Shown: piece after piece, positions 4,066-28,222 of the stretch
Position numbering within the stretch: the stretch's first letter is position 1
How the letters are laid out: each line of letters starts with the position of its first letter
NCBI GenBank assembly: GCA_902761035.1
Contig: CACWIW010000004.1
Location: forward strand, 3,981-67,980
Length of the DNA stretch: 64,000 nt
Direction: 5' to 3'
DNA from: an uncultured bacterium
GTDB lineage: Bacteria; Verrucomicrobiota; Kiritimatiellia; RFP12; UBA1067
The notes under the pieces: model-generated
What the model saw: only the letters and a program-made list of their open reading frames with translations
The model's database searches: none
Told to the model about the DNA's origin: nothing
Position numbers and translations under genes: made by a program

Positions 4066-4139
4066 TGCCTCATGGTGTAATGGTAGCACCGCAGATTCTG
4101 AATCTGCTTGTTAAGGTTCGAGTCCTTATGAGGCAACCA
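4066..4139 (+). tRNA. tRNA-Gln (anticodon CTG), CCA encoded
   Basis: Hand-folded 74-nt cloverleaf: acceptor TGCCTCA/TGAGGCA, D stem GTGT/GCAC, anticodon stem GCAGA/TCTGC with loop TTCTGAA, 4-nt variable loop, T arm TAAGG-TTCGAGT-CCTTA, discriminator A, then CCA. Confidence 0.9.
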
Positions 4140-4542
4140 TTCCGCAAAACCTGCGGACTCTCGACGTTGGATGCGTCGGGCCGAGCACGCCACCGATGCA
4201 GTCAATGATTTCGCCGCCGGCCTTCTTGAAGTAACCTCCAATTATGGATTTCGATGATTCAGGAACGAGAATTGCTGGAAACAACCGGGCGAAAGTCGCG
4301 GATTATCTCGGGCAGCTTGAAGGCACACCACTGTGGGAGAAACGCATCAAACTTGCGGCGCAAGTATAAAATTGGTCTTTTAGGCTTCATGCGCTGATAT
4401 TATATCACTAATCTGCCACACTAGGCAACCCTCAAACATATTTTATGAGCGAACTTTCCATAGAATCTGCCATTTTTATGAGCGAAGTTCTCAGATTCCC
4501 ATTCGACGTTCTCCATTGGCGTAGGAATTGCGGTCACGCGCG

Positions 4543-5124
4543 CTATCGCTTCGCCGCCGCGACTCGCTTCACGATCTCGGCCACGGCCTTCCACTTCTTT
4601 CGGATGACGGACCGTTTCGCGAACTTGGCGGGAATCTTCCCCTTGTGCTTCACGAAGAGCATGAAGGTTTCGGCGAAGTCCTCCTGCGTGGCAGAAGTGG
4701 CGTATTCAGAGACATAGCGGGTTCCCCACCCCGCCGCGACGCACTCTTCCGCAGGATCTTCGCCGTAGGCGCCACCGAACGCGGCGCGGAACAATCCGCC
4801 CTTCTTCAGCGCGCCCGGATACAGGTCCGCGAGCGCGTGCCCGAACTCGTGACGAATCACGTCAAGCGCGTTCGCCTTCACGCCCAGGTCGCGCCAGAGA
4901 GCCGCGATTGGCAGATACATTGACGGGAATTCAATAGTCTTCTCCTTCTCCTGATAGCGTCCCATCGTCCCTGTAAATGTCATGCTCGGCGCAATCGTCA
5001 GGTACGTGCACCCGACCCCGTCCAGTTTTGATCCATCCCACAGGACGCCGAGACGCCAGAGTTCCATACGGACCTTGTTGTAGGCCCGATTCACTTCGTT
5101 GCGCGATGTGTAGATTTGGCCCAT
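4543..5124 (-). CDS. Putative zincin-like metallopeptidase (HEFGH motif)
   Basis: 193-aa ORF with IRHEFGHALAD (HExxH). An acidic EDFAETF segment lies ~55 aa downstream, where the third zinc ligand of gluzincins would sit. Last gene of the island operon. Confidence 0.55.
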   Translation of the reverse strand: MGQIYTSRNEVNRAYNKVRMELWRLGVLWDGSKLDGVGCTYLTIAPSMTFTGTMGRYQEKEKTIEFPSMYLPIAALWRDLGVKANALDVIRHEFGHALADLYPGALKKGGLFRAAFGGAYGEDPAEECVAAGWGTRYVSEYATSATQEDFAETFMLFVKHKGKIPAKFAKRSVIRKKWKAVAEIVKRVAAAKR

Positions 5125-5190
5125 GATGTTCTTTCATTACCCTGCTACGTACATTTCTCGTTGGGATTGCTTTCGAGTCCCAACAATCAC

Positions 5191-6177
5191 CTACCAGTTT
5201 AGCTTATCTTTCGGCTTCAGCTGCCTCAGCACTGTCATACCCTCGGCGTAGCCCTGCTTGATAAATCGCTTTGCGCACTCACCATTGAAGGCCAGAGTAC
5301 CAGACCAGATGCGAATCTGGCGAGAGAGAGCATCAACACTTTGTGTAAGTTTCCCTACAAATGGAACGTCGTTTAGGAAACCGAAACTTGGCAACAAGTC
5401 GCTTGCGACATCCAACAGTCCTCGCAGTGAGCTACGGGGACGCACCTCGACTAATGTTGTGCCGCGCGGGATGGTGGCATCAATCGCTTCCGGTTCGTCA
5501 GCGGCACAATTACACCGCACGACGATGATCGTACGGATGTCGGGCCGACGTTCGAGAATCTGGGAGACGGGGATGTTGTCCCCGCCCATTGCCTCCCAGG
5601 AACCATCGACATACCTCCTGCCGTTTAGATCCACCGGAGCAAATCCCCATGGGATGGCCGCAGAGGCAAGTAGCTGCTTGATTCTGTTGTCTGCGTTCAC
5701 TTCCTCGTTCAGAAAGAAACATTGTCTTTCATAGCAGTCCGAATCAAATGTGCTGAGCAATCCCCCTCGGCATTCAAGCGTAGTGGCGTAGACTTCCGGC
5801 GCCCCTTCTGGCCATATTCTAGGAAGCAGTCTAGAAAGAATCGTTTCCAGAGCGCTACGGTCAAGAAGCCCCTGGAACGGGAATGGTTTCCCCGACAACA
5901 CGTCTTTGAGGGCAACGATGAACTGACCCGGCACTAGATTTGAAAGATTTGGCGTGGCGATGTCACCGACTTTTGTGTGCCAGAACCGGCAAATCTTCTC
6001 CGGATCACGTAACGCAGCAAACGCCGCAGCGTTGATCGCTCCGGCGGAAGTGCCAGAAATCACGCTAACCCGATCGGCAAGACCGAGTTCGCACATCGCC
6101 TTCCAGACACCAGCCTGGAACGCCCCTTTCGCGCCGCCGCCAGAGAGGACGAGCCCAATTGAATCATCATTTCCCAT
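5191..6177 (-). CDS. Patatin-like phospholipase
   Basis: Oxyanion box LSGGGAKGAFQAG, nucleophile elbow GTSAGA (GxSxG), catalytic-Asp region YVDGS. 4 nt separate it from the M48 gene stop. Confidence 0.85.
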   Translation of the reverse strand: MGNDDSIGLVLSGGGAKGAFQAGVWKAMCELGLADRVSVISGTSAGAINAAAFAALRDPEKICRFWHTKVGDIATPNLSNLVPGQFIVALKDVLSGKPFPFQGLLDRSALETILSRLLPRIWPEGAPEVYATTLECRGGLLSTFDSDCYERQCFFLNEEVNADNRIKQLLASAAIPWGFAPVDLNGRRYVDGSWEAMGGDNIPVSQILERRPDIRTIIVVRCNCAADEPEAIDATIPRGTTLVEVRPRSSLRGLLDVASDLLPSFGFLNDVPFVGKLTQSVDALSRQIRIWSGTLAFNGECAKRFIKQGYAEGMTVLRQLKPKDKLNW

Positions 6178-6180
6178 ATT

Positions 6181-7017
6181 CTACCAACTCAGTTTTGCTT
6201 TTCCAATCGTTTCGCCGAGCGTAACGGCTGGACGATATCCTGCGAACCACTTCTTCACCTCTGCGGCACGGACGGCAGGATACGGATGCGAAGCATCCTT
6301 TATCATCCAGTTCTGCAGAAACTTACTCTTGCCAGAATCCTTCATGAACTTCTGGTATTCGGCGGCTTGTTGGACGAACTGCTCCATGTCCACGCGTTCG
6401 GTGATGCGCGTTCCACCTCCGGCAAGACGCATCATCGTGCGAGCGACGACATCAGCGTCATTTGTCACGTATGCCGCCACACGGTCAGCGGAAAACTCAC
6501 TCCGGCGAATCCAGTACATGAGCGCCCACTGCAGCGGCTCGGAGATGATGCCGAGACCAAACAATCCTCCAATGCCGCCCCCTGCGGAAACGAGCAGACT
6601 TGCAAGGGAATGGTAGAGAACATGTCGGCAGAGGATATGCCCGCATTCGTGCGCGATGACAGCCCTCAACTCTTCCTTGGAAAGTAAGTCGATGATACCT
6701 GAGTTCACGACGACGAACGGCTTGGTGTCACCGTATGTGTAGGCATTCGGGATCGGATCCATTTCAAGGAACATTTCCGGTTCCGGTATCTGAAGCGTTT
6801 CGCAAGTATCCTTCAGAATCGCATAAAGTTCGGGAAGTTGCGACGGCCCGAGCTTGATCTTTGAAGCCATGTTGATACCGTGCATCATGTCCTCGGTGAC
6901 AGACTGCATGAATTTCTTCATGAGCGTGTCAAGCCCCGGGATTGCCTGTAGCTTGTTCAACGCATCCCGATCTTCGGGGTGAATGAATGGTTTGTAGTCG
7001 ATGGGCATAGTGAACAT
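6181..7017 (-). CDS. M48-family zinc metallopeptidase
   Basis: AHECGHILCRH (HExxH) followed by hydrophobic segments and SEFSADR, typical of M48/HtpX-like peptidases. 278 aa. Confidence 0.8.
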   Translation of the reverse strand: MFTMPIDYKPFIHPEDRDALNKLQAIPGLDTLMKKFMQSVTEDMMHGINMASKIKLGPSQLPELYAILKDTCETLQIPEPEMFLEMDPIPNAYTYGDTKPFVVVNSGIIDLLSKEELRAVIAHECGHILCRHVLYHSLASLLVSAGGGIGGLFGLGIISEPLQWALMYWIRRSEFSADRVAAYVTNDADVVARTMMRLAGGGTRITERVDMEQFVQQAAEYQKFMKDSGKSKFLQNWMIKDASHPYPAVRAAEVKKWFAGYRPAVTLGETIGKAKLSW

Positions 7018-7050
7018 TCCTCTCTTTGAATGACATTGGATGAAAAATTA

Positions 7051-7791
7051 CTACTTTCCTTTCGAAAAAATCTTTCGGAAAAATCCGCTGCACCTTGTAC
7101 GAATCTCAGAAAACCACTTTCGCTTCGGCGGATGAAGTAACACATCAACATCTTTACGACAAGTTTCGAGCTCCTTGCGAAGCTCAGTTACTTCTTCTTT
7201 GAGAAGCTTATTTTCGTCTCTAGCACAATTGAGATTTGCCTTGGCGTCGTCAATAAGTCGCTGCAATTCTGCGACCTTGTCCGGCACTGCCTGAAACTGC
7301 TTCTCGGCACTTTCCACACGAACACGACAGCGCTCAACCTCATTAGAGAGAGTGTCTGTCTTACTCTTGAGCTCGCCGTTGTCTTTCAAGATACTGTCGA
7401 GATTCGTTATGACCGAGTTGACTAATGTTGTAAGTTCGGCACGGACTGCCTCACGCACAGCCTCGCGCACAGCATCAGGGATTACGTTGAGGCGCTGATC
7501 TAAGGCGTCTAAGCGTTTGCCGGCGACTTCAATACACTTCCACGCCGTCCACTCGCCTTTCGGAAGCGGTCCATTGAGCTGCTTGTATGCGGTAAACGCT
7601 TTATCACGCAATGATCGGAGTTCGGAGTATATGTCCTCTCCTGGATTGAGCTTGAGTTCATTGATAGCCCTCCAAAGCGCCTCCTTGTTCTCGTTTTCTT
7701 TATGAAAGGCATTCAAATGGTCTTGAAAATCATCCCAAGACGGAACATAGACATCACCTCCAAATACTCCTTGCGACACTCTTACCGACAT
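7051..7791 (-). CDS. Coiled-coil protein, unknown function
   Basis: 246-aa ORF. The C-terminal half has heptad-like, charge-rich sequence (ELKSKTDTLSNEVERCRVRVESAEKQFQAVPDKVAELQRLIDDAKANLNCARDENKLLKEEVTELRKELE). No motif I recognise. Confidence 0.6.
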   Translation of the reverse strand: MSVRVSQGVFGGDVYVPSWDDFQDHLNAFHKENENKEALWRAINELKLNPGEDIYSELRSLRDKAFTAYKQLNGPLPKGEWTAWKCIEVAGKRLDALDQRLNVIPDAVREAVREAVRAELTTLVNSVITNLDSILKDNGELKSKTDTLSNEVERCRVRVESAEKQFQAVPDKVAELQRLIDDAKANLNCARDENKLLKEEVTELRKELETCRKDVDVLLHPPKRKWFSEIRTRCSGFFRKIFSKGK

Positions 7792-7804
7792 AATGCGGCA
7801 CCTT

Positions 7805-8278
7805 TCATTTCGCCTTCCTCGACGAAGTCGGTCTCTTCTTAGCTATATTTCGTTTTGCCGTAACCGGCCTAGTACTGGATGACATTACAGTTTTCTTACG
7901 CACTGCGGACTTGCGTGTCTTTCCAATCTTCTGCTTCGCCTTCTCCATCGGCAATTCGACCCCAAGATGCTGTGCCAGCAAGCGGTAGTGGGGCGCAAGC
8001 AGTTCCTTGATCACCCCTTGGAATGTTTCACGCGCCGTCTCGACAATCTTCTCGATTTCTTTTTGTGCTACGGCGGCGATCTTTGCCGCAGAAGCTGCCT
8101 GAACAGACATCTTGGCAAGCTTGCGCTCCTGCGCTTCCATTTTACTGTCAATGTCGCCAATTTCCAGTCCGATTACTTCTGCCACAATATTCTTAACGTC
8201 GGCCCGCGTCAAGATATCGACCGTTCTAGTCTCGTCGCCGGTCAAGTGGCTTACAGTCACGAAAGTATGTCTAGCCAT
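7805..8278 (-). CDS. Small protein with Lys/Arg-rich C-terminal tail, unknown function
   Basis: The ORF track starts at 8305. I prefer the ATG at 8278 (MARHTFVTV), which follows GGAGGA by 5 nt and lies just after the upstream stop (8290). The tail is KAKQKIGKTRKSAVRKKTVMSSSTRPVTAKRNIAKKRPTSSRKAK. Confidence 0.55.
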   Translation of the reverse strand: MARHTFVTVSHLTGDETRTVDILTRADVKNIVAEVIGLEIGDIDSKMEAQERKLAKMSVQAASAAKIAAVAQKEIEKIVETARETFQGVIKELLAPHYRLLAQHLGVELPMEKAKQKIGKTRKSAVRKKTVMSSSTRPVTAKRNIAKKRPTSSRKAK

Positions 8279-8289
8279 AACCATCCTCC

Positions 8290-9045
8290 CTATGCGGCAT
8301 TCCACCGCTTTTTGAATTCCACCACGAAACGATCCACGATCCTATTGATCTCACGTTCCGGATTCGCTACCGCGTGTTTGAGCAACTCAAGCGGAAGATT
8401 CCTCAGGAAGTCACGAACGGGAATGAATCCGCTACGGACGAGCATCTCGTTGCGAAGAGCGTCATCAACTGCGGAGATACCAAGATCATCTTCCGCGTAC
8501 GAACGTATCTTCCGAATGTCTCTCGTGTCACCCTGAGAAACGGAATCTATCAAACCGAGGCCAAACCGCGCCCAAAGAATGTTAAGCGGAATGACGAAGT
8601 GGCCGTCCAGCGGGATTATCAAGGACTTCAACCCCTTGTTTTCCAGCTCAGCTTCGATCGTCTCAACGATGTCACCGTTTTCTTCAGGCGACCACTTCTC
8701 GGAATTCCTACAGTTCAGGAGAAAGATCATTTGCTTCCCCTGTTCTCGGACTCGTTTGAAAACATCTGCACAGGTTTCCCCTAGCGACTTGCTTTCATGG
8801 ACATAAATCACCACGTTCGACATGTCGATGGCAGATGCAGCCGTACCGTCATCCTCGCCATTCGCATCGAATCCCGGTGTGTCGATGATGGAAACGGCCG
8901 GTGACAGCGAATAAATGACGTTCTCATGCGTGGTAGAAAGTCCCCGCCCCATTTCGGCGACATTGCGACCAACAAGCGCATTTACCAATGATGATTTTCC
9001 GCGCTGAAATCCACCGACAATGGAGATTGTCAAGACTGTGCTCAT
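8290..9045 (-). CDS. Small dynamin-type GTPase (paralog of 11983-13074)
   Basis: G1 VGGFQRGKSSLVNAL, G3 IIDTPG. Shares the blocks FLLNCxNxExWSP and IEAELxNxG with the 363-aa paralog. ATGA overlap with the upstream 966-aa gene. Confidence 0.75.
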   Translation of the reverse strand: MSTVLTISIVGGFQRGKSSLVNALVGRNVAEMGRGLSTTHENVIYSLSPAVSIIDTPGFDANGEDDGTAASAIDMSNVVIYVHESKSLGETCADVFKRVREQGKQMIFLLNCRNSEKWSPEENGDIVETIEAELENKGLKSLIIPLDGHFVIPLNILWARFGLGLIDSVSQGDTRDIRKIRSYAEDDLGISAVDDALRNEMLVRSGFIPVRDFLRNLPLELLKHAVANPEREINRIVDRFVVEFKKRWNAA

Positions 9046-11942
9046 CCGGCCAACTCCTTTGTGACGGTTGAGGCAAAAGCCTCGATCCGCTTACGCAACG
9101 GTTCAATGACATTAATGCGTTCGGCCCTGTTTGCCTCGGCGATGCGCTTGCGCTCTTCAAGGGATTTGCCAAACTGTGTTTCAGGTTCCCTTACACGCTC
9201 TGCCTCAAAGTCGGTCTTTAGTGAACCAAGACGCGAAATGAGTTTTTGTCGTATTCCCTCAAGACCTTGTCTAAGCTGATCTTCCAGAGGCTGTCTGATT
9301 TTGTCTTGAAATCGGATATCATTGACAGAATCCTCTATATTCTTGCGGAATTTGCTCGCCGTCTCCACAATCAAAGCATTGCGCCGCTGTTCCTTGGCAA
9401 TTTTGTTTCTTTCTGGCGCAGATGGGTCAATACCTCCTATCTTTGCCAATTCAGCAAAGAGCCAAAGCAAAAAGTCCAACAGGTTTTTGAAATTATTCAG
9501 CAAAAAAGTCTTGATATCTGTCGCACCGTGGACGATGTCAATCACCTGCCGGTTTTCCAATAGGACATTGGACAGATTATCGCATAACTCGCCGACGTCT
9601 TCCTCGGGGACGCTGGGAGGCTCAAATCCATCCAACATTTCGCTCTCGTTGATCTTCCGTTCCTTCCAAAGTTCGTGGATGTCACTGCAGACAAAAGCCA
9701 ACGATTTTCGAAGCCGTCCAACACCATCGCCTTGACGCCACTGCTCCAGTGCGCGGCTCATGGCACCCTTCAAAGCCCCCGCAAATTTCGGGGTTATGTC
9801 ACGCTTGATAGCTTGAGCCAGCTTCTCGGCGCTCCAGAAGAATCCGGCATTCACGGTTGATTCGGCCAAATGATAGGAAAGGTCAGTCACCAATCGATTC
9901 CCGATGGCAAGCTCAAGAATTGATCGAGCCAAACTATTTACCATTGAGTCAAGGCCCTCTCCCAAAACAGATCTTTCAACTTTCCCATTGGCGCGATCTA
10001 CAAAATCAGCTAATTGCCTTTTCGCATCTTCGACCTTGACCTTCCATTCTGCCTCTTTTTCCTCCGCAGCCTTCTCGGAGGCTCTAAGAACACCTTCGTA
10101 GGCGCTGAGCGCCTTGGCCGCACGGTCGCTGCCGCGATTCACGAGAATGCTTTCGGCCTTAAGCGGAATGATGTCATTGTTTAACTTGGAGATGATTACA
10201 TCCAATTGGCTCGCCTGCCGAGCAATTTCTACGGATGCCGACGTTAATTCATCGATACTTGCGAGATTATCATCTTCAATCATAGTGCCGACTTTATGAA
10301 CCATCTTCACCCACATGGAAGACAACGAAGAAGCTCCGTCCTTGACTTTAGCGTCACGGCGCATATTTGCCTCATCCAAATCGCTGAACAAGTCGTGGTG
10401 TTTCAAGAGCAATTCACCCTGCGTGGAAAGGAAAGCCAAGCGCGCGCTGTAAGGGACAACATCCAAAGATCGTCCCATATTGGCGAGCAAGCTTTTCGTC
10501 ACATCTAGAATCTCCGTTGATTTGACATCCCATTCTGACCAAATATTGGCCGTGGTCTGGATTTTTCCATCAAGTCCCCAATTGGCGATCCGCTGAATGG
10601 CCCTCTTGTCATGATCACCCAACTGCTTGTCGCCATAAATTAGATACCAGACAGCGTCGGCATGGCGAATCGCTCTCTCCGCCACACAGGTGTCAAAGGC
10701 ATTGGCAAAGAGGCCGGGGCAGTCCGTAATGCGGCAGCCCAGCCGTTGGAGATTTTCGGAATGGAGTCGAACCAAAACGGAACGAACAAATACAAATGCA
10801 ACCTCATCAAACTCAAAATGGGCGTTGCAGCCATCCCGCCACCGTGTCTCCCAGTCTTTTGGGAAAGCGACTAGTTTTTGAAATTGATTGATGGGCAGCG
10901 TAGCGTTCTCAACCAGTTCCTTTTGCCCATCCGTTCCGAAAAAACGGAGCTGGAGCGTGGCGATGCGCAATTGGTCGAGGCGATCTCGCTCCCAGTTTGC
11001 CTTGTCAGATTCCCACTTTCGCCACAGACCATCTGCGGTACTGCGAAGAAGGTTCATTATTTCCGGTCTTCGCAAATCGGCCAACTTAGGAAACCCGTCA
11101 TCGGTATCGATAGCATCTTCATATTCTTCGTCGGAGAGATTTGAGTTTAAGCTCCGCAATTCTTTTGAAGCCATCAGCTCTCCACGAAGGATGGTTGAAA
11201 TTCCCAGGGAAAGTTCATCTGGGGACTTATAACTTACCTCTGCCCATTCGGCAAGGCCGTCCTTCGTCTCGTTTCCCGAAATATTCTGGGCTGTGACAAC
11301 GGCAGCGCTCGTCTTAATGCCACTGCCGCGCGGGGAGATGTCGCGACCATCGCAGAGTGCGTTGAAAGTGGTGGACTTCCCGCCCTGATACTCGCTGACG
11401 AGGGCGATTTCAAAGGCATCCTCCTGACACTTACACGTTGTCAGGCGAAGTTCATCGGCGTATTTCTTTGGCACGTTCAGAGCGGAAGCTTCCTTCAAGA
11501 GGGCAAGCAATTCGTTGCGGCGGAATTCATACCATCTCGCACGGTCTTTGATATTGACGATCCGTGTTTCATCAGTTTTCGCCGTCCAGATGATATCGCC
11601 GTTTTCAAAATGTGAGATTCGGTCGTTCGGATCGCTGTCGCCATCGTAGGCTTCCTCGTCAGAAATCGGATGCCCGAGTGAACCTCGTTTGCCTGAAATG
11701 TCGAAAGCCCCCCACTCCTTGTACCAGCGCCTACCAATCGTACCATGGATTTCATGGGGTTCGGTCTCGCCGGGGCGTATCACAATCGCGCACCAATCCT
11801 GGTAGTTACACTGCCATCCACCGTCGAGGGTACGATAGATTCCAGGTTCTATTGGTTCGCCAACATAATATCCGCGTTGCTTCATCCAGTCGTATTTGGC
11901 CTGGAATTTGGAAAGGACATCAGCTGGGATGTTAGCGTTCAC
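9042..11942 (-). CDS. Large dynamin-like protein with N-terminal LGFP-like repeats (paralog of 13083-15650)
   Basis: G1 SEYQGGKSTTFNAL (aa 183-191), G3 ITDCPG (aa ~405-410), then ~550 aa of helical stalk-like sequence. It aligns by eye along its whole length with the 855-aa ORF. The extra ~128 N-terminal aa resemble LGFP repeats. Confidence 0.8.
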   Translation of the reverse strand: MNANIPADVLSKFQAKYDWMKQRGYYVGEPIEPGIYRTLDGGWQCNYQDWCAIVIRPGETEPHEIHGTIGRRWYKEWGAFDISGKRGSLGHPISDEEAYDGDSDPNDRISHFENGDIIWTAKTDETRIVNIKDRARWYEFRRNELLALLKEASALNVPKKYADELRLTTCKCQEDAFEIALVSEYQGGKSTTFNALCDGRDISPRGSGIKTSAAVVTAQNISGNETKDGLAEWAEVSYKSPDELSLGISTILRGELMASKELRSLNSNLSDEEYEDAIDTDDGFPKLADLRRPEIMNLLRSTADGLWRKWESDKANWERDRLDQLRIATLQLRFFGTDGQKELVENATLPINQFQKLVAFPKDWETRWRDGCNAHFEFDEVAFVFVRSVLVRLHSENLQRLGCRITDCPGLFANAFDTCVAERAIRHADAVWYLIYGDKQLGDHDKRAIQRIANWGLDGKIQTTANIWSEWDVKSTEILDVTKSLLANMGRSLDVVPYSARLAFLSTQGELLLKHHDLFSDLDEANMRRDAKVKDGASSLSSMWVKMVHKVGTMIEDDNLASIDELTSASVEIARQASQLDVIISKLNNDIIPLKAESILVNRGSDRAAKALSAYEGVLRASEKAAEEKEAEWKVKVEDAKRQLADFVDRANGKVERSVLGEGLDSMVNSLARSILELAIGNRLVTDLSYHLAESTVNAGFFWSAEKLAQAIKRDITPKFAGALKGAMSRALEQWRQGDGVGRLRKSLAFVCSDIHELWKERKINESEMLDGFEPPSVPEEDVGELCDNLSNVLLENRQVIDIVHGATDIKTFLLNNFKNLLDFLLWLFAELAKIGGIDPSAPERNKIAKEQRRNALIVETASKFRKNIEDSVNDIRFQDKIRQPLEDQLRQGLEGIRQKLISRLGSLKTDFEAERVREPETQFGKSLEERKRIAEANRAERINVIEPLRKRIEAFASTVTKELAG

Positions 11943-11982
11943 GGATTAACTCCTTTGCGATGAATGTTGGGTTGGGTGATGG

Positions 11983-13074
11983 CTAGTGCTTGCCGAAATT
12001 GGCGAGAAATGCCCGCAGTGCGACCTTTGCTTTTTCCGTGGCTTGTATTACGGTTGGCGCGATGGTGCCGCGAAACACAGTAGTCGTTGCAGCAGCGGCC
12101 GAGTTGAGTGCATTACCGGCCTTGGTTGCTGCGACTTTGGTTTCTCTCGCAACTGCGTTGGCCGCGTTCGCCACCACCGGCGCGACCCTTTCATAGATTG
12201 CGCCGACACGTCTCCTCGCCTCATCAAGCCAAGACGCCATGCCGTCCTTCTTTCCGAGTTCGGCTAATTTCTGGCGAAGAGCGGGGAAACCGCATCGCGC
12301 CATGATGGCAGAAGGTGAGGGATCGTCAATGCCGAGTTCGTCTTTGGCATAGCACCTGATTCGCTTTTCGACACGCTCGGCGTCACGCCTAACCCGCTCA
12401 TCGGGGGAATCCTTGTCGCGCGACAGTTGGCCTGTAGCATACCAAGCCCAAAGCGCATTGACTGGATGGACAAGACGTTCCCCTACGCGCAGGAAAAGAT
12501 TCGCTACGCCCATATTTGCCAGTTCAGCCTCGATAGCCGAGCCGATTTCGGCATTCTGCGGATCGTCCGGCGACCAGCATTCTGGATTGGTACAATTGAG
12601 CAGGAACAAGCAGCGTTTCCCTGGGACACAGGCTTCGTGGACAATCTTCCGGCAGACATCACCCATGGCTTTCGCCTCTTGGACGATCACGACGACCGAC
12701 GAGGCCTTGATTGCAACCGACGCGGATTTGTCATCGGTATCCTGCGCGTTGTAGCCAGGAGTGTCGACGACATCTATGTACTGCAGGAGAGGCTTGTAGG
12801 CGGATATGCGGAACCAATCGTCGGGGCCGACCTCGCGGGATGGGTCGAAAACATCCTGACGGCGGGCGAGACGCTCGCCGTCAGGGTTGGTGCCGTGGAA
12901 GAGCCAGACTTCCTCGGCCTCCCCGTAGCGAAAGAGCGTCGAGGCGGCCGTGGTGCGCAACCCCTTGCCGGTTGGGGCGTAGCGGTCATCTAGCAGACAG
13001 TTGACAAGCGTCGATTTGCCTATTTGGAAGCCGCCCACGATAGCGACCACAGGTTTTTCGCTGTGGAAGTCCAT
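11983..13074 (-). CDS. Small dynamin-type GTPase with Ala-rich C-terminal extension
   Basis: G1 VGGFQIGKSTLVNCL, G3 VVDTPG. Paralogous to 8290-9045. Alanine-rich amphipathic tail (VVANAANAVARETKVAATKAGNALNSAAAATT). Starts 8 nt after the stop of the 855-aa gene. Confidence 0.75.
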   Translation of the reverse strand: MDFHSEKPVVAIVGGFQIGKSTLVNCLLDDRYAPTGKGLRTTAASTLFRYGEAEEVWLFHGTNPDGERLARRQDVFDPSREVGPDDWFRISAYKPLLQYIDVVDTPGYNAQDTDDKSASVAIKASSVVVIVQEAKAMGDVCRKIVHEACVPGKRCLFLLNCTNPECWSPDDPQNAEIGSAIEAELANMGVANLFLRVGERLVHPVNALWAWYATGQLSRDKDSPDERVRRDAERVEKRIRCYAKDELGIDDPSPSAIMARCGFPALRQKLAELGKKDGMASWLDEARRRVGAIYERVAPVVANAANAVARETKVAATKAGNALNSAAAATTTVFRGTIAPTVIQATEKAKVALRAFLANFGKH

Positions 13075-13082
13075 TGCTGCAC

Positions 13083-15650
13083 CTAAGCCGAAAGATCGAC
13101 AATGACCGCGTCCTTGAACGCATCGATCCGCTTGCGCAGCGGCTCGATGGTCTGAGTACGAATGGCATGGATTTCGGCGGCAATCTTCTTGCGCTCTTCG
13201 ACAGACTGTCCGAACATCTTGTCCGGTTCGGCGACACGCTCTTTCTCAAAGTCTTTCTTGAGATCTTCAAGCCTGTTACGCAGAATATCCTCGATTTTCT
13301 GCACCGAACCTACAAGTTCTTCGTTCAGCGGTTTGACAATGCCGTTGCGGAAGGTAGAATCAGATACGGCCTTTGCAATCTCAGGACGGACTTTACCGAA
13401 GATTCTATCTATTTCCCGTTTCAGTCTCTCAATCTCCGCTCGTTCACGCTCCTCCTCACTGCGAGTCAAATCCCAGATGGCCTTTCCGATGAAGACAGCA
13501 GCTGTAAGTGGGAAACAGACAATTCCTCCAATGAACCCAAGAAGCATTGGCCAGATAACCTCCCAGATAACCGTGAAAATGCCTCTCCGCCCTTTCTCTG
13601 CTATTTCGCTGATATTTGTGCCACCCATGACTTTTTCAGAAAGATTTCCGCAAACACCCGTTATGTCTTCCAGAGAAACAGTTGGCGTTGAAAAACCACG
13701 AAGCATCTCAACGTCGCTTAACTGACGATCTGCCCACAAATCATGAATCTCGTCACATACATTAGACAACGAACGACGAAGGCGATCAAGGGAATTGCTA
13801 CCTGATTTAGCCTTCCATTCTTCGATTGCGCAAGTCAATGCGTCTTTGAAGTCCTCCGCCAAGACAGGTGTCATTCGAGCGACAAGATCCCGTTCCATGG
13901 CTTTCCGCGTCATGTAGAATTCGCGGCTGGTAATCCTAAGTATGGCTGCGATGTCATTTGCGAGGATATCAATGAATTGATCGCCTAAGGCCATGTCAAC
14001 AATCTCCGTTGCCATAACCTTGGCGAGCATGTCTTTCGATCCCGCGAAAGACGAACGATCGATTGTTGTATTGGCCCTTTCGACAAAATCCGCCAGCTGC
14101 CTGCGGGCGTCTTCAACCTTGGCGCGCCATTCTTCTTCCTTTGCCAGAGCGGCGTCTTCAGTTGCCTTCAGAACGCCTTCGTAGGCGAGAAGCGCCTTGG
14201 AGGCGCGGTCGCTGCCGCGGTCAACGAGGATACTTTGCGCCTTCTGGGGAATTATCTCGTTTTCAAGACGGGAGAGAATACCGTCGAGCAGACTTTCGCG
14301 GCGCACGACGGCAATGGATTCAGCATCAAGTTCCTGGATGTCCTCAACATTCTCGAGCTCAGTTGACCCTCCGACACGTCGTACCATCTTAGCCCACATG
14401 GTTTCCGGCGCAGGATCACCTTCCTTGACCTTTGCGTCGATGCGCATGTTGGCTTTGTCGAGACTGGAGAAAAGCGATGCACGGTTGAGAAGCAGGTCGC
14501 CCTGCATGGCGAGGAACGCGAGGCGGGCGTTGTAAGGAAATACCTCAACGGCATGTCCTGCATTGGCGAGGGCGGCCTTTGTGGCGGGAATGATCTCGGC
14601 TATCTTCTGCTCATGCGGCCCCTTGAGGTTACTCGTGGCCTCGATTTTCCCGAGCATCCCCATCGCGGCGATGGCGCGGATGATTTCAAGATCCTTCTGC
14701 CCAATCTGCTTCTCGCCGTTTATAAGATACCAGACGGCATCGGCGTTGAGGATTGTGCGCCGCGCCACACTGGTGTCGTATGCGTTGGCAAAGAGGCCGG
14801 GACAGTCCGTTATGCGGCAGCCGAGCCGCCGGAGATTCTCCGAGTGTATACGCACGAGGACAGACTGCACAAATACAAAGGCCACTTCGTCAAGCGTGAA
14901 CTGCGAGTCCGGCCCGTTCATCCAGCGGACCATCCAGTCTTTAGGGAAGGCGATCAGCTTCTGGAACTTGTCGATGGGCAAAACAGCCTGCGAAACCATC
15001 TTATGGTATTCTGCGCTATTGTAGAAACGCAATTGCAGCGTGGCAATGCGCAATTCGTCCAGCTCGTCGTCAGAAAGCGACGTCTTGTCGTTGCGCCACT
15101 TGCTCCAGAGCACGTTAGTTGCACTCTTTAGCGCGGTGCGGCATTCGTCGTTGTCAAGATCGACAAGGCCAGGAAAGCCATCGTCCGTCGCGATTGCCTC
15201 CGCATATTGCTCGTCGGACAACTTGGAGTTGAACCTGCGGAGAGCCTCGGAATCGATAAGCGGACGGCGGAGGATTGTGGAAAGGCTGAGCGCTATAGCA
15301 CCAGGTGTCTTGAAGGTCACTTCCGCCCATTCCGGCAAGCCGTCTTTCGTTTCGTCACCGGCGATATTCTGCGCCGAAATGACTGCGGCGCTCGTCTTGA
15401 TGCCGCCACCGCCGAGCCCGCGCGGGGAGATGTCGCGACCGTCGCAGAGCGCGTTGAATGTCGTGGATTTGCCGCCTTGGAACTCACCAACGAGGGCAAT
15501 CTCAAAGGAGTCCTCCTGGCACTTGCGCGAGGTTTGACGGAGTTCGTCCGCGTACTTTTCGGGAAGATCTAACGCCGTGGCCTCCCGAAGGAGTTCGAGG
15601 AGTTCGTTTCGACGTGTTTCGTACCACTTGGCTGTGTTGTCGTTAGTCAT
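13083..15650 (-). CDS. Large dynamin-like protein with hydrophobic hairpin
   Basis: G1 GEFQGGKSTTFNAL (aa 55-63), G3 ITDCPG (aa ~280-285), helical stalk. Hydrophobic hairpin GIFTVIWEVIWPMLLGFIGGIVCFPLTAAVFIGKAIW near the C-terminal third, at a BDLP paddle-like position. Confidence 0.8.
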   Translation of the reverse strand: MTNDNTAKWYETRRNELLELLREATALDLPEKYADELRQTSRKCQEDSFEIALVGEFQGGKSTTFNALCDGRDISPRGLGGGGIKTSAAVISAQNIAGDETKDGLPEWAEVTFKTPGAIALSLSTILRRPLIDSEALRRFNSKLSDEQYAEAIATDDGFPGLVDLDNDECRTALKSATNVLWSKWRNDKTSLSDDELDELRIATLQLRFYNSAEYHKMVSQAVLPIDKFQKLIAFPKDWMVRWMNGPDSQFTLDEVAFVFVQSVLVRIHSENLRRLGCRITDCPGLFANAYDTSVARRTILNADAVWYLINGEKQIGQKDLEIIRAIAAMGMLGKIEATSNLKGPHEQKIAEIIPATKAALANAGHAVEVFPYNARLAFLAMQGDLLLNRASLFSSLDKANMRIDAKVKEGDPAPETMWAKMVRRVGGSTELENVEDIQELDAESIAVVRRESLLDGILSRLENEIIPQKAQSILVDRGSDRASKALLAYEGVLKATEDAALAKEEEWRAKVEDARRQLADFVERANTTIDRSSFAGSKDMLAKVMATEIVDMALGDQFIDILANDIAAILRITSREFYMTRKAMERDLVARMTPVLAEDFKDALTCAIEEWKAKSGSNSLDRLRRSLSNVCDEIHDLWADRQLSDVEMLRGFSTPTVSLEDITGVCGNLSEKVMGGTNISEIAEKGRRGIFTVIWEVIWPMLLGFIGGIVCFPLTAAVFIGKAIWDLTRSEEERERAEIERLKREIDRIFGKVRPEIAKAVSDSTFRNGIVKPLNEELVGSVQKIEDILRNRLEDLKKDFEKERVAEPDKMFGQSVEERKKIAAEIHAIRTQTIEPLRKRIDAFKDAVIVDLSA

Positions 15651-15671
15651 TTTTCATTCACTTTTGTCTTC

Positions 15672-15695
15672 CCCACCCGTCTTGCGACGGGTGGG
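15672..15695 (-). other. Intercistronic GC-rich hairpin (10-bp perfect stem, 4-nt loop)
   Basis: CCCACCCGTC-TTGC-GACGGGTGGG, between the stop at 15707 and the start at 15650. No U-tract follows on the transcribed (minus) strand. Confidence 0.5.
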
Positions 15696-15706
15696 ATTAA
15701 GGGTAT

Positions 15707-18016
15707 TCAGAATGTCTTAGTAAGTGCAGCTAGGGCACCAGCGGCGGCATTGGTGAGGCGTGTCTTCTCGTCTGGAGCGGGCGTGAGTTCGTCACGCCAA
15801 TTGGCGACGATGATGCGGAATGCTTCATCAGAGTTCTTAGATCGGATGAAAGCGTCAAAAAATGTTTCCACGACGGCCGCGAAGATGCGGTTGGGACAGA
15901 AGCTCTGGGCGGAACCCATCGATTGCTCCAGCATCGCAATCACGTCGGCGCGAACCGAGGCGTCCGGGATTGCCTTTTCAAAGAGCCTCTTCTTACGCTC
16001 CAACGCGGCGGTATTTCCGGTGCCGGACTTGCGCATGGCCGTTGAATACGCTTCGGCCGCTTCCTTCAATTTCGCGTCGAGCGCAGCTAGGGTTTCCTGC
16101 ACGGCGTTCGCGTCGGACTCGGACACGTCCGGAAATCGCTTAGGTTCAAGGGAATCCGTTGCCGCATGGAGCAACGGTTCCAGATGGAAACGGAACTGGA
16201 GGTCGAATTCCGCAATCCTCCGAAGCGGAGCGGAAAGCTCTCGCAGGATTGCCGCATCCCCGGGATACTTCGTGCGTTCGTCGATTCGGTCGGCCAGGGC
16301 GACGATTTGGGCCCTGACGGCAGCCAGCCGTGCGGAGGGGCTGTCCGAGGCCGGGGTTGCTTTCGCAGGAACGAACCCATTCAAGTACCGGTTGGCCCGG
16401 AGCGAATCCATGACATCCGACAACAGCCGCGCGATCCGGTCGGTCAGATGCAGGTCCATCGTCTCCCATTGGTCGCGGAATTTCACGCGGAAATCGTTGA
16501 TGAAGAGCTGCGGCCGCCCGTGTTCCTTCGTAATCGCGCTCTTGACGACCCGACGCAATTCTTCGGGCGAACCGTATCCGAATCCTTCTGCTCCCCAGCG
16601 GAGAACTTGTTCCTTGACGTTGGAAACGGCGTCGTTCCACTCCTTGTCCTCTCCGCGCGTCTTTTCCACGGCGGAATCCCGCTGGCGTTCCAGAATGTCC
16701 TGGGTTTCGTTGTGGAGCATTGCCGCGAACACATTGGGATTCACGGAATCCAGACCGAGCGCAGGGACCTTGGTTCGGGCAGACTCCACTGCATTTCGAG
16801 CGGAGGCAAGGGCCGCTTCCGCTTTTGCGTTTTGGCGGGACAGGATGGCCGCGTCGATGACGGGGAGGTTTTTCGCGAGGAAATCCAGAATGCGCGGCAT
16901 CGCAACTTGATTCACCTTGTCCTTGCAGTGGGCGTCGCATTCAATTGTCTCGAACGGACGATCAACCTTCGCCCGGAAGTTCTCTACACAACTTTGTAAC
17001 CGATCCGGCGTCGAAGCATCATTAAAGAGAACTAACGTGAATTTCGTCTGATCCTCAACATCTGGAACGACTCTCTGCATCGCATCCAGCGCGGTAGTGT
17101 CGGCCTTCAACCATTCGACACGGCCATCTATCGGCACCTTTTTCACAAGTATCGTGATGTCGCAGCTGTTCCGAAGATTTTCAGTCTGAGCTTTCGCCAG
17201 ATTTATGCCCGCCTCGCCTATGCCAGGGAGATCGACAACACGGAGTTTGGCGAAGTCAGTGGCCGGGAACGGAGCCTTAACCACGAGGTTCGCGACAGCT
17301 AGAAACGGACCTGCTTTCGTCTTTCCATCCTCAGGGTATGCCACAAACTGACGTAGTTCCGGCAGTGAGATTGAGACGGCCCTTCGTCCTGTAAGATAGG
17401 ACTCGTATCCCGTCAGATGTAATTTTGCGTGCTCCAGTCTCTTTATAATATCGAGGTTGTTCTGGTTCTCCTCAACGCCCTGCGGAAGTTCCACGTGTAG
17501 GTCACGGAAGGCTGCCATGCTGGTCGGCGCGGGGATTCCGATCTCACTGCACAAAGGTGCGATAACCTCGGAGAGGAATGATTCAGGCGAGTGAAAGTCC
17601 GCGATTGCGGCCTTTTCGTCCAGACTGTTCTCAATCAGACTTCGGACGGCCGTGGTACAGTATAGGTCGCCAGTAGGGATTTCGTTTTCTGAGAGCCCTG
17701 TTGCGGATTGGATGAATGTGCTTTTCCCCATACCCGCCGTACCGCCGATGCCGATGCACAGAGTTTCCCGTGCGAAACGGACACGGACAAGGGCATAGTC
17801 AGCGAGAACGCCTCGCACGGCTTCCGCAGCCGAACGAAGCTGGACGGACGCTCCGTGCAGGTCGGAATTGGCGCATTCGGCGGCTTCCGTTTTAGCGATG
17901 ACTCCCTCCAGCGCGATTTCACGAGATTTCCACGCGGCAATGGCCGCGTCAATATCTTTCAGGTGCGCTGCGCGTGTGGCGAGGATAGCATCAAGTTGGG
18001 CTGAGATGTTGCTCAT
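15707..18016 (-). CDS. Divergent P-loop GTPase, dynamin-like (LeoA/HP0731-type by recall)
   Basis: 769-aa ORF. G1 GIGGTAGMGKSTF (aa 88-100), G3 VVDLPGIGEAG (aa 260-270), a long helical C-terminus. No obvious hydrophobic hairpin. Confidence 0.65.
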   Translation of the reverse strand: MSNISAQLDAILATRAAHLKDIDAAIAAWKSREIALEGVIAKTEAAECANSDLHGASVQLRSAAEAVRGVLADYALVRVRFARETLCIGIGGTAGMGKSTFIQSATGLSENEIPTGDLYCTTAVRSLIENSLDEKAAIADFHSPESFLSEVIAPLCSEIGIPAPTSMAAFRDLHVELPQGVEENQNNLDIIKRLEHAKLHLTGYESYLTGRRAVSISLPELRQFVAYPEDGKTKAGPFLAVANLVVKAPFPATDFAKLRVVDLPGIGEAGINLAKAQTENLRNSCDITILVKKVPIDGRVEWLKADTTALDAMQRVVPDVEDQTKFTLVLFNDASTPDRLQSCVENFRAKVDRPFETIECDAHCKDKVNQVAMPRILDFLAKNLPVIDAAILSRQNAKAEAALASARNAVESARTKVPALGLDSVNPNVFAAMLHNETQDILERQRDSAVEKTRGEDKEWNDAVSNVKEQVLRWGAEGFGYGSPEELRRVVKSAITKEHGRPQLFINDFRVKFRDQWETMDLHLTDRIARLLSDVMDSLRANRYLNGFVPAKATPASDSPSARLAAVRAQIVALADRIDERTKYPGDAAILRELSAPLRRIAEFDLQFRFHLEPLLHAATDSLEPKRFPDVSESDANAVQETLAALDAKLKEAAEAYSTAMRKSGTGNTAALERKKRLFEKAIPDASVRADVIAMLEQSMGSAQSFCPNRIFAAVVETFFDAFIRSKNSDEAFRIIVANWRDELTPAPDEKTRLTNAAAGALAALTKTF

Positions 18017-18053
18017 TGGAACTGTTCCTGTTTGGGTTGATTGGTAAAATCGA

Positions 18054-18073
18054 CGGGGACGCTAGCGTCCCCG
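18054..18073 (-). other. Intercistronic 20-nt perfect palindrome / hairpin
   Basis: CGGGGACGCTAGCGTCCCCG between the stop at 18082 and the start at 18016. On the minus-strand RNA it is followed by UCGAUUUUA, so it could be a weak attenuator. Confidence 0.45.
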
Positions 18074-18081
18074 CCTGTGGA

Positions 18082-19800: not shown

Positions 19801-19950
19801 GTTGTTTCTTTTCCTTTCACGATTCTTGTCTTCCTGATGGCTTGCGCCCTTTCAGACATCGGCGGGGGCGGAAAACGGAAAACTCCTCCGATGCATCGCA
19901 AGAGATGAAGTCACTTGCGACGCTTCCCATGGCCGCAGGGGCGGCGGTCG

Positions 19951-20420
19951 CGGGGCGACCGCCCTACCGTTCGGTCACGCGGGACGCGTGACCCTACCAG
20001 TTGGTCGTAACAAGCGCAACCCTCCCGCGCGGGAAATCTGTTGCCGAGGCGATTTGGGGCTCGCCCCTTCTCGTATTGGCGGAAATAGTATACCAAAAAT
20101 CAGACCCGCGAGCGGGATAACTTGGTAGAAAATTACTCCCGCCAAACCTCGCGCCCGCAGCCTGTTCGGAAATTCATTGTCCTATCCCCCGCCTGTTCAT
20201 AAGTCGGGCTCTGGGGGCCCAGATGTGTGTAGTCGGACATAGGTAACACTTAGGCAAAGGACATGGGTATTTGCGGCGGCTCGGCGGGACGCCTCGCCCC
20301 ACCATGCGGCGCGCTCGGTGATCGCGCCCTACCATGCGAACCGGTAGGGGCCGACCACCGGGCGGCCCGGAGGTGGGGCGAACCCTCCGGGTGAGCCGTG
20401 GCGGCTCGGCGGGACGCCTC
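19951..20420. repeat. GC-rich REP-like repeat block
   Basis: The identical 21-mer GGCGGCTCGGCGGGACGCCTC occurs at 20275-20295 and 20400-20420, 125 bp apart. CCCTACC-type motifs occur at 19962-19968, 19992-19998 and 20327-20333, with an inverted GGTAGGG at 20343-20349. Further short GC hairpins are present. Confidence 0.6.
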
Positions 20421-27837: not shown

Positions 27838-28222
27838 TTGTCATTTTTGCCACGGCCGCAGCCGGTCGATATGATAATTCCGCCATTTCCTCTAGTTGTG
27901 CTATCGGGGCGGGCATGATCTGCCAAGTGAATCTGCATCCATCATTTGAAATATATTTCACCCGCCCGTTCATTGCCAGCTCCGCACGTAAATCTCTTTG
28001 CAAGAAGGCATCTAGCACATCATCTGTGGCAAACTCCCCTCTGTGCCAGTGTGCGAGAACGGACACGCGATCCAACACCTCACTGATTGCATCTTCCTCT
28101 GTCGGATAGAAATCGACAACCGTCTCGTCGGCAAAGTCGGACAACGCGCCCTCAAAGTTGTCGATGAGCAGATATGTACCTTTCGGCACGCCACGGCGAC
28201 TCAATGATTTCCTATGCGCCAT
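27809..28222 (-). CDS. Hypothetical small protein (137 aa) downstream of the restriction gene
   Basis: The ORF track extends it to 28447, inside the REase gene. I prefer the ATG at 28222 (MAHRKSLSRRGVPKGTYLLIDNFEG). It overlaps the REase stop by 11 nt and the start of the next gene by 29 nt. Low GC. Confidence 0.45.
   Translation of the reverse strand: MAHRKSLSRRGVPKGTYLLIDNFEGALSDFADETVVDFYPTEEDAISEVLDRVSVLAHWHRGEFATDDVLDAFLQRDLRAELAMNGRVKYISNDGCRFTWQIMPAPIAQLEEMAELSYRPAAAVAKMTNERRKNQEA

Follow-up and report, generated by a model that had tools for sequence, protein, structure and literature searches.

What is the role of a patatin-like lipase, two zinc peptidases and two small proteins that are encoded directly behind a row of dynamin-like GTPase genes? 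The question is raised by an operon in a 64,000-nucleotide stretch of DNA, here called the window, from an uncultured bacterium of the Kiritimatiellia (Verrucomicrobiota; GenBank assembly GCA_902761035.1, contig CACWIW010000004.1, positions 3,981 to 67,980 of the forward strand). On the minus strand of the window six GTPase-type genes (g01 to g06, 19800-8290) are followed by five tail genes (g07 to g11) located 3' of the last GTPase gene. A first-pass annotation of the same DNA had described the five genes as directly following the GTPases, and all five open reading frames (ORFs) are present as described. We propose that the operon, which lies on a horizontally acquired island, encodes an undescribed, multi-gene, membrane-associated GTPase conflict system in which the enzymes are docked and can be exchanged, and which presumably serves in defence; we would put the probability of this reading at about one half.

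The GTPase core and its conserved tail

The tail consists of a small protein with a polybasic end (g07), a coiled-coil protein (g08), an M48 zinc metallopeptidase (g09), a patatin-like phospholipase (g10) and a zincin (g11). The genes of the operon are spaced by -4 to 66 nucleotides (nt), and the gaps of the tail, in the order g06/g07, g07/g08, g08/M48, M48/patatin and patatin/zincin, are 11, 13, 42, 3 and 66 nt; the M48-patatin spacer had earlier been given as 4 nt. No minus-strand terminator-like site was found in the five-gene tail. The GTPase part starts with g01 (18082-19800, 572 amino acids (aa)), a Dynamin_N protein, and g02 (15707-18016, 769 aa), which has the P-loop motif GxxGxGKS and is without a Pfam family. 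Then come two pairs of a dynamin-like protein (DLP) and a small GTPase, i.e. g03 (13083-15650, 855 aa) with g04 (11983-13074, 363 aa) and g05 (9042-11942, 966 aa, LGFP repeat at the N-terminus) with g06 (8290-9045, 251 aa). The pair is tandemly duplicated (9042-15650), with protein identities of 51% and 33% and DNA repeats of 70-73%. Hydrophobic, paddle-like segments were found by a Kyte-Doolittle scan in g01 (residues 441-479) and g03 (residues 689-728).

Sister loci were gathered from the DLPs, the last small GTPase, the M48 peptidase and the zincin, and the proteins of the window were mapped on them by tblastn. The fetched loci with homologs are denoted by L-numbers, L008/L090 being treated as one locus. 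A genome scan with the DLP alignment, in which very specific patterns were used, gave 2 loci, and further ones were reached via the small GTPase and the M48 peptidase. The comparison is based on a small sample, 11 loci including the window, all from one bacterial lineage; as they were found by homology to the window, similar architectures are favoured. The loci come from Verrucomicrobia, Kiritimatiellae and Lentisphaeria assemblies, the nearest named relatives being Verrucomicrobia bacterium UBA6982, Lentisphaeria bacterium UBA4640 and metagenome-assembled genomes of Kiritimatiellae.

The core g01-g02-DLP-small GTPase is shared by all 10 distinct sister loci, the M48 gene is present in 9 of the 10 and the M48-patatin pair in 8 of the 10. 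In eight loci (L008/L090, L024, L091-L096) the core is followed by one to three g07/g08-type proteins, then by the M48 peptidase (273-275 aa) and the patatin (315-331 aa). L097 contains the M48 gene without the patatin and has another HExxH protein at its end, while the most divergent locus, L009 (Lentisphaeria), has neither enzyme; a coiled-coil protein, a DUF445 protein and a Ser/Thr kinase are found there instead. A second M48 subgroup (60% identity) occurs in L098 among dynamin-like genes, together with DUF445, a different HExxH protein and an HSP70-like/dynamin-like pair. The number of DLP/small-GTPase pairs ranges from one to three across the loci; L024 has two DLPs, and in L091 a partial DLP-like gene of 428 aa is found besides two full DLPs. 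The gene order is kept also where the DLPs of the loci share only 29-34% identity. Compared with the window, the M48 peptidase has the highest identity (79-89% in 8 sister loci), followed by g01 (56-72%), g02 (56-65%) and the patatin (52-72%), and wide ranges or low values are seen in the small GTPase (40-82%), the DLP (29-70%), g07 (34-46%) and g08 (23-50%).

From the recurring order in 8 to 9 independent loci we conclude that, as far as comparative genomics can tell, g07, g08, the M48 peptidase and the patatin are integral parts of the GTPase system. Homologs of these genes thus do travel with dynamin-like genes in other genomes, the small proteins standing directly before the M48 gene. The first-pass annotation had tied the whole tail to the GTPases as one set, and this holds for the four genes just named; the zincin, which is promiscuous and missing in most sister loci, does not share this fixed linkage.

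The M48 peptidase (g09, 6181-7008) is a clear member of PF01435 (E-value 1e-23, 84.5 bits vs a gathering score of 20.3). We place its start at the ATG that matches the MPIDYK start of the homologs, which gives 275 aa rather than the 278 aa reported before from the start at 7017. The HECGH motif is found at residues 120-124 (6637-6651) and SEFSAD at residues 170-175 (6484-6501); none of H120, E121, H124 and E171 varies among 38 sequences. The AlphaFold2 model has a mean confidence (pLDDT) of 84, with residues 262-275 below 50, and Foldseek matches it to Ste24p, ZMPSTE24, BepA, BlaR1 and HtpX. The protein resembles HtpX, Ste24 and BepA in its HExxH...E site, its fold and the Gly-rich hydrophobic segment (residues 134-156) after the HExxH helix. 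Unlike HtpX, it is devoid of N-terminal transmembrane helices, segment 134-156 being the single, internal hydrophobic one, and it belongs to a separate clade: the best HtpX equivalog model of NCBIfam, NF002669, gives 68.7 bits vs a cut-off of 341, and all such models stay at or below 69 bits vs cut-offs of at least 245. Distant members of the clade have a C-terminal Zn-ribbon, near members a K-L-x-W end. The GC content at third codon positions (GC3) of the M48 gene is above that of its operon neighbours, i.e. 0.64 vs 0.50-0.58 in the window, 0.89 in L090 (11934-12761) and 0.75 in L093 (12515-13342).

The patatin (g10, 5191-6177, 328 aa) is equally clear (PF01734, E-value 1.7e-27, 97.3 bits vs a gathering score of 27.7). 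It contains GGGAKG at residues 13-18 (6124-6141), GTSAG at residues 42-46 (6040-6054, with Ser44) and VDGS at residues 190-193 (5599-5610, with Asp191), and SGGGAKG, GTSxG and VDG are invariant in 10 sequences. Matches to the CBASS (anti-phage signalling based on cyclic oligonucleotides) and anti-phage lipase models of PADLOC and NCBIfam are weak and below cut-off, e.g. 31.1 bits vs a cut-off of 200 for NF041079 (CapV, cGAMP-activated). No CD-NTase/cyclase domain was detected in the operon by a Pfam scan of the operon and the flanking ORFs.

A further link between the two enzymes is found at their very ends. The M48 peptidase ends in ...GKAKLSW (K-L-S-W, 6184-6195) and the patatin in ...PKDKLNW (K-L-N-W, 5194-5205), and in the alignment both proteins close with a shared four-residue peptide of the K/R-L-x-W type in every locus; in L095 both have the variant L-E-W. 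The scan for [KRQ][LIVM][NSDEQT]W-COOH covered 5189 stop-to-stop ORFs of at least 80 aa from the window and all 98 loci then fetched, and only the M48 and patatin gene families matched. None of the proteins of the terminal slot, described below, has the K/R-L-x-W motif. The K-L-x-W end is kept in M48 homologs down to about 58% identity, and a further subgroup ends in ...ADAPxKxxW. In the M48 model the peptide sits on the low-confidence last 14 residues. Since two unrelated enzymes bear the same exposed C-terminal peptide, it can be expected to be a common docking or recognition site for a putative receptor.

The two small proteins upstream of the enzymes are more variable in nature. The ATG of g07 (7805-8278, 157 aa) at 8278 is preceded by a Shine-Dalgarno-like GGGAGGA, and the resulting 11-nt gap to g06 agrees with the gap in other loci; an alternative GTG start at 8305 would give 166 aa. 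The protein has a conserved N-terminal, helical core (TFVT.SH..., VETARETF..VIKELLAPHYRLLAQHLGVELP) and, as previously noted, a Lys/Arg/Ser-rich tail of about 45 residues (113-157, i.e. 7808-7942), with 18 K/R, 11 S/T and no D/E. There is no match to g07 in Pfam, PADLOC or NCBIfam. Homologs are found in the same place in L008/L090, L024, L091, L093, L094, L095 and L096, and a search with the core (residues 1-112) returned 27 representatives among 1.84 billion proteins, nearly all of 147-209 aa. In 18 of the 27 the last 45 aa have a net charge of at least +8. The tail sequences are unrelated, and because the basic character persists despite this, the polybasic tail is, judging from these homologs, a selected property. 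The earlier label "histone-tail-like" should be taken as a statement about composition only; the basic tail itself is well kept. Acidic lipid and nucleic acid are candidate ligands. Another g07-type ending, '...KPC[PR]KK*', was considered as a lipidation-like motif and rejected. The last 16 nt of the g07-type gene are read a second time, in another frame, as the beginning ('MPEKVI') of the gene that follows (L090 11367-11382, and likewise at this junction in L091, L093, L094 and L096), so that the conservation of the ending is a by-product of the overlap.

The coiled-coil protein g08 (7051-7791, 246 aa) gives only weak Pfam matches, to many coiled-coil families, over residues ~85-220. Its N-terminal part is conserved (VPSW..F, NGP.P.G.WT.W.CI, IPDAVREAVREAVRAEL) and its C-terminal end is basic-aromatic (LLHPPKRKWFSEIRTRCSGFFRKIFSKGK). 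Homologs are present in every M48-bearing type-A locus. The relatives keep the N-terminal region, while the coiled coil varies from 0 to ~200 aa and the C-terminal end is either an amphipathic, basic-aromatic NPPKK.GFF motif or a transmembrane helix. An hhalign comparison of the g07 and g08 families gave a probability of 28% (E-value 6e-4), and a few distant g07-type proteins bear a g08-type 'NPPKRK-FF' end. These similarities are suggestive of diverged paralogs, in which one N-terminal module would be combined with alternative membrane- or polyanion-binding ends. No hydrophobic N-terminal segment was found by Kyte-Doolittle analysis in any of the five tail proteins, and no obvious signal peptide was seen by eye; most likely, all five act from the cytoplasmic side.

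The zincin and the exchangeable operon end

The zincin gene (g11, 4543-5124, 193 aa) is the last of the row. Its similarity to PF15887 (Peptidase_Mx) is marginal (31.9 bits vs a cut-off of 27) and restricted to residues 90-158. The protein contains HEFGH at residues 92-96 (4837-4851), and EDFAE at residues 148-152 (4669-4683), and its basic C-terminal helix is conserved. Both HEFxH and EDFAE are constant in an alignment of 19 sequences, and H92, E93, H96, E148 and E152 are invariant in the family of 302 homologs. The AlphaFold2 model (pLDDT 79) shows a weak Foldseek match to the catalytic domain of anthrax lethal factor (E-value 0.09), and the match to PDB entry 9urd (E-value 7e-4) covers the active-site region only. 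TIGR04549, a family of substrate import-associated zinc metallohydrolase lipoproteins, gives 25.4 bits vs a cut-off of 75. The zincin has no lipoprotein signal: its N-terminus (MGQIYTSRNE...) is not hydrophobic and is without a lipobox. No Sus genes (SusCD/TonB neighbourhood) occur in the zincin contexts examined. All motifs that the first-pass annotation had quoted for the three enzymes (HECGH, GGGAKG, GTSAG, DGS, HEFGH and EDFAE) are present, and the alignments confirm that the catalytic residues of M48, patatin and zincin are invariant.

The spacer between patatin and zincin (5125-5190, minus strand) is 66 nt long, as was stated earlier. The hairpin GTTGGGA...TCCCAAC lies at 5160-5184, not at ~5140-5165; its stem (5160-5166/5178-5184) can be lengthened to 9 bp, and the surrounding 86 nt (5115-5200) fold with a z-score of -2.1 vs shuffled sequences. 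As the hairpin lacks a U-run and is only modestly stable, we rejected it as a canonical terminator. The spacing itself is not conserved. It is 66 nt in the window and 5 nt in L024, where both the patatin-zincin and the zincin-next-gene junctions measure 0-5 nt.

The genes that follow the patatin differ from locus to locus: there is a zincin in the window, a zincin plus a Zn-ribbon protein in L024 and L093, a 139-aa protein plus an ADP-ribosylglycohydrolase (ARH) in L008/L090, an ARH plus a Zn-ribbon protein in L091, a glycoside hydrolase family GH5/GH16 protein, an ARH and a zincin fragment in L094, and other genes in L095. A degraded Zn-ribbon partner gene was looked for between the tRNA gene at the island edge and the zincin (4140-4543), and tblastn found nothing. 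Beside patatin or zincin, the ARH recurs as an alternative to the other end modules, often with the conserved 139-aa protein before it (L008 16897-18147, L090 13988-15238, L091 13597-14406, L094 16162-16959, L005 11683-12498 and L036 7743-7982).

Zincin and patatin are also found with two other GTPase/HSP70 cores. One of them, L004 (415-11258; the same as L016, and partial in L015), encodes a 137-aa protein, a Peptidase_C39_2 protein, two Dynamin_N GTPases (635 and 537 aa), two HSP70-like proteins (777 and 783 aa), a zincin (70% identity) and a 221-aa Zn-ribbon protein, and looks, from its gene content, like an undescribed dynamin + HSP70 system. The other, L005 (4427-14255; also L023, L033 and L044), starts with DUF445 and a protein of 428 aa related to g02 (26% identity, with a weak Dynamin_N match, in two copies in L023). 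Next come three proteins (313, 304 and 316 aa), of which the second gives a weak DO-GTPase2 match, and at the end zincin, patatin, the 139-aa protein, the ARH and proteins of 326 and 197 aa. Other neighbours of zincins are a TerB-DnaJ protein, a GrpE-like protein or a DO-GTPase2-like protein, and in L001 the zincin stands nearly alone, beside DUF445. The modules have also moved independently of their neighbours: the patatin of L091 is 93% identical to that of L005, which has a different core, while L008 and L094 have M48 peptidases that are 97% identical vs patatins that are only 61% identical. On this comparative evidence, the end of the operon is a variable slot, whose modules are exchanged and move between cores.

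Because few sister loci have it, and because it occurs with other cores or nearly by itself as well, we regard the zincin as a swappable terminal add-on, whose participation in the system of the window is plausible, not secure. Two further occurrences of zincin homologs may be mentioned. On the short contig of L020 (263-2605), two copies (59% and 61% identical to that of the window) lie on either side of a gene of the '326-aa' family. Five viral contigs of IMG/VR (L099, L106, L107, L108 and L112, 116-297 kb) contain distant relatives of the catalytic region (28-41%). No relatives of M48 or the DLPs were found in IMG/VR, which is uninformative on defence either way. A phage-borne system was considered as well; with its distant zincin relatives only, the viral collection gives no evidence for it.

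Setting of the operon

The operon occupies a low-GC island of ~16 kb (about 4140-20000), at the edge of which a tRNA-Gln(CTG) gene is located (4066-4139, plus strand). The GC content of the island (~4.1-20 kb) is 50-57% and its GC3 is 0.50-0.65, vs 0.77-0.86 in the flanking ABC-transporter and esterase genes. Given this low GC and GC3 relative to the flanks, and the adjoining tRNA-Gln, the operon is a horizontally acquired island in a high-GC genome. A GC3 below that of the host flanks was found in every sister locus, and the flanking genes differ from locus to locus. L094 adjoins AbiEi/AbiEii and a second dynamin pair.

Other neighbours recur. A DUF445 membrane-protein gene is common, either upstream of g01 or beside zincin or M48 (L090 955-2316, L095 683-2044, L097 1-1302, L009 8473-9792, L001 8197-9558, L005 4427-5734 and L098 10840-12191); full-text searches found no literature that links DUF445 with dynamins. 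Ser/Thr kinase genes flank L009 (10516-12102), L092 (1258-2343) and L096 (620-1831), and of these three kinases, one has tetratricopeptide repeats and one precedes a sigma-70-like gene.

Repeats were seen at both borders of the operon. Upstream of g01 there is a GC-rich region of ~600 nt (19830-20420) in which 'GGTAGGG' + palindrome units occur several times and a direct repeat of 21 nt, GGCGGCTCGGCGGGACGCCTC, is found in perfect copies at 20275 and 20400; the region resembles elements of the repetitive extragenic palindromic type and lies at the island boundary. Just past the zincin stop, a 16-nt direct repeat, TTTTATGAGCGAA[C/G]TT, is present in two copies 33 nt apart (4441-4489), and a minus-strand promoter-like site (4428-4399) is found near it, 3' of the zincin.

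Elsewhere in the window there are genes for carbohydrate-active enzymes, MreB and PBP2, and a second small low-GC patch. A 1593-aa ORF without a Pfam family (21911-26692) is followed by a DUF7309/DUF6930 protein (26806-27837), both with host-like GC. Further on, within the second low-GC patch (52% GC), a gene for a NotI-like restriction endonuclease overlaps a C5 cytosine methylase gene (28212-30877), the two forming a separate restriction-modification islet.

Known systems, rival explanations and meaning

It is instructive to compare the operon with systems in which one or the other of its components has been characterized. The closest in kind is the Eleos/'Dynamins' anti-phage system, a two-gene LeoA + LeoBC operon, and P-loop-dependent protection against phage was shown for the dynamin system of B. 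vietnamensis (Millman et al. 2022, bioRxiv 10.1101/2022.05.11.491447). As in Eleos/LeoABC, consecutive dynamin-like GTPase genes are found on an island, and the LeoBC and LeoA models of PADLOC match g06 (2.5e-19) and g03 (1.5e-16), respectively, these matches being partial and covering the GTPase domain or the stalk. The NCBIfam LeoA model NF041922 (LeoA/HP0731 family) gives 28.6 bits vs a cut-off of 325. Unlike Eleos, which has two genes (three in enterotoxigenic Escherichia coli) and no enzymatic accessory genes, the present loci contain 8-11 genes: four core GTPase-type genes (six in the window), small adaptors, M48, patatin and a variable end. PADLOC has no model for M48, the zincin, g02 or g07. 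The remark in the first-pass annotation that the combination is foreign to known dynamin operons has thus held up.

Patatin lipases are established defence effectors. The patatin of the window shares with CBASS CapV and other anti-phage patatins the patatin fold with the Gly-rich oxyanion loop, the GxSxG serine and the DG aspartate, a cytoplasmic location and a gene in the effector position. Unlike CBASS, there is no cyclase or nucleotide-signalling gene, so that either the GTPase assembly or M48 would have to activate it, and its K-L-N-W end is shared with the neighbouring M48. Regarding the latter, OMA1, an M48 peptidase, cleaves the dynamin-like OPA1 on mitochondrial dysfunction (PMC2806285). 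The present loci likewise join an M48 peptidase with membrane-embedded segments to dynamin-like GTPases, and here the coupling is a strict gene linkage; the parallel is a lead rather than an assignment to the OMA1 group. GTPase-centric conflict systems were surveyed by Kaur, Burroughs, Iyer and Aravind (2020; PMC7159879), with no mention of dynamin, patatin or M48. The present loci resemble those systems in that a GTPase core, sometimes with HSP70, is combined with exchangeable effectors, zincin and patatin being common to three cores. A dynamin core with an M48-patatin pair sharing a C-terminal peptide is not described there. Of the DO-GTPase and GAP1-N2 families defined in that survey, only weak DO-GTPase2 matches (18-21 bits vs a cut-off of 27) were seen, in neighbours of the type-C and L025 loci, and the GTPases of the window match Dynamin_N. 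Literature searches for dynamin with patatin (also with M48, defence or DUF445) found nothing relevant. We infer a conflict system that is built around dynamin-like GTPases and has enzymes firmly wired to them, the kind being known and the combination absent from PADLOC and the searched literature.

A mechanism can be proposed for such a system. An association with the membrane is suggested by the hydrophobic segments in g01, g03 and M48 and by the amphipathic or transmembrane ends of the g08 relatives. The GTPases would assemble on the cytoplasmic (inner) membrane, as BDLP, DynA and the Leo proteins do, with g07 and g08 tethering or scaffolding the assembly. M48 and patatin would be recruited to one common receptor via their flexible C-terminal K/R-L-x-W peptides and held inactive there. 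Phage infection or membrane injury, as the most plausible triggers, could cause a GTP-dependent rearrangement that frees the enzymes; the patatin would then hydrolyse membrane phospholipid, with a suicidal or containment outcome as with CapV of CBASS, and cleavage by M48 of a substrate in the membrane or among the GTPases might serve for activation. The zincin would be an optional extra protease, common to many GTPase/HSP70-centred systems. In the first-pass annotation the lipase and the two metallopeptidases were taken for an effector set of the abortive-infection type. This is one interpretation of the gene content, and the two metallopeptidases need not be killing effectors: M48, as the most conserved component and one that is always linked to dynamin-like genes, fits a role in processing or regulation no less well. 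A bolder version, in which M48 is the dedicated partner of the DLP assembly, i.e. a prokaryotic version of the OMA1-OPA1 stress switch of mitochondria, M48 and patatin are recruited by K/R-L-x-W, and the whole is a new immune or suicide machine with cassette-exchanged effectors, appears doubtful to us at present.

A role in conflict or defence is favoured by the fast evolution of the GTPases and adaptors, the conserved but cassette-exchanged enzymes, the island composition and the AbiE and dynamin neighbours of L094. A number of observations weigh against it. A clear defence context is found in one sister locus only (L094), and the nearest defence genes of the window, the NotI-like pair, are 8 kb from the operon, beyond ordinary genes. 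Every match to a named defence family is far below its curated cut-off. No direct (att-type) repeat of the tRNA-Gln end was found between 3900 and 21000, and there is no integrase among the ORFs in or beside the island that were scanned against Pfam. The zincin lies behind a 66-nt hairpin gap, has a host-like GC3 of 0.76, and its closest relatives (81-95%) are in other contexts. Finally, M48 peptidases and dynamin-like proteins also do housekeeping work in membrane quality control and repair. The main rival reading is a membrane remodelling or repair module outside immunity, in which the DLPs would seal or reshape damaged membrane, M48 would be a dedicated stress protease that processes the GTPases or, like HtpX, clears damaged membrane proteins, and the patatin would remove or remodel damaged lipid. 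The strong conservation of M48 and its linkage to dynamins in every context examined, including the different architecture of L098, would fit such a module, as would its HtpX/Ste24-like fold with a hydrophobic segment, the frequent DUF445 neighbour, the maintenance of membrane integrity by DynA of B. subtilis and the precedent of OMA1 and OPA1. However, the distribution is patchy and narrow (83 clusters of the small GTPase, 27 representatives of g07), the composition is that of an island with non-syntenic flanks, and the varying copy number of the GTPase pair, the fast evolution of the small proteins and the swapping of patatin and terminal modules are unlike core maintenance, which makes a repair module unlikely in our view.

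A question of a different sort is where the system ends. The zincin of the window might be a separately acquired or resident gene that abuts the island end, the system stopping at the patatin. Besides the hairpin gap, this would account for a GC3 close to that of the host flanks and outside the range of the island genes, for close relatives in other contexts such as the near-solo DUF445 + zincin pair, for the absence of the zincin from most sister loci (L008/L090, L091, L095) and for the lack of its usual Zn-ribbon partner. The GC3 value as proof of a foreign origin in the operon was found to be not decisive, the composition being mosaic in all loci. Against a separate gene stand the same position of the zincin in L024 (5 nt after the patatin) and L093, the fragment at the end of L094, the other HExxH proteins that end L097 and accompany L098, the repeated presence of close homologs in GTPase/HSP70 operons, and a gap that has neither a terminator-like nor a strong promoter-like site; we consider a zincin outside the system somewhat unlikely. 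It is very improbable that the tail encodes exported virulence or competition factors, with an ExoU-like patatin and proteases acting on other cells and dynamin-aided release. LeoABC was first tied to a pathogenicity island, and patatin toxins such as ExoU are known (PMC8241856), but neither a hydrophobic N-terminus nor an obvious signal peptide was seen in the five tail proteins, the scan of the operon genes and of flanking ORFs yielded no secretion-system gene, and the internal hydrophobic segment of M48 is typical of inner-membrane M48 enzymes. An adjacency by mere chance, with five unrelated neighbours in transcription units of their own, is scarcely credible. Weak promoter-like matches do exist inside g07 and at the M48/patatin junction, but such matches are not in excess (14 vs 9.3 +/- 3.4 in shuffled sequence), the gaps are -4 to 42 nt with 3 nt between M48 and patatin, the order is kept across loci with strongly diverged DLPs, and M48 and patatin share their C-terminal motif. 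For g07, g08, M48 and patatin a chance adjacency is, by these comparative data, already contradicted.

If the operon is indeed a conflict system, its significance would lie in several points. Bacteria are known to be protected from phage by dynamin-like proteins, the known dynamin defence system is without an enzymatic effector, and a lipase and a protease wired to the GTPases would provide a concrete read-out for bacterial dynamins. The shared K-L-x-W peptide would offer an experimental handle for finding the receptor. The zincin and patatin cassettes, common to three GTPase/HSP70 cores, would open a guilt-by-association path to undescribed systems in Verrucomicrobiota and Kiritimatiellae. 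And the strict linkage between M48 and dynamin-like genes raises the prospect that protease control of the OMA1-OPA1 type may predate mitochondria or may have evolved twice.

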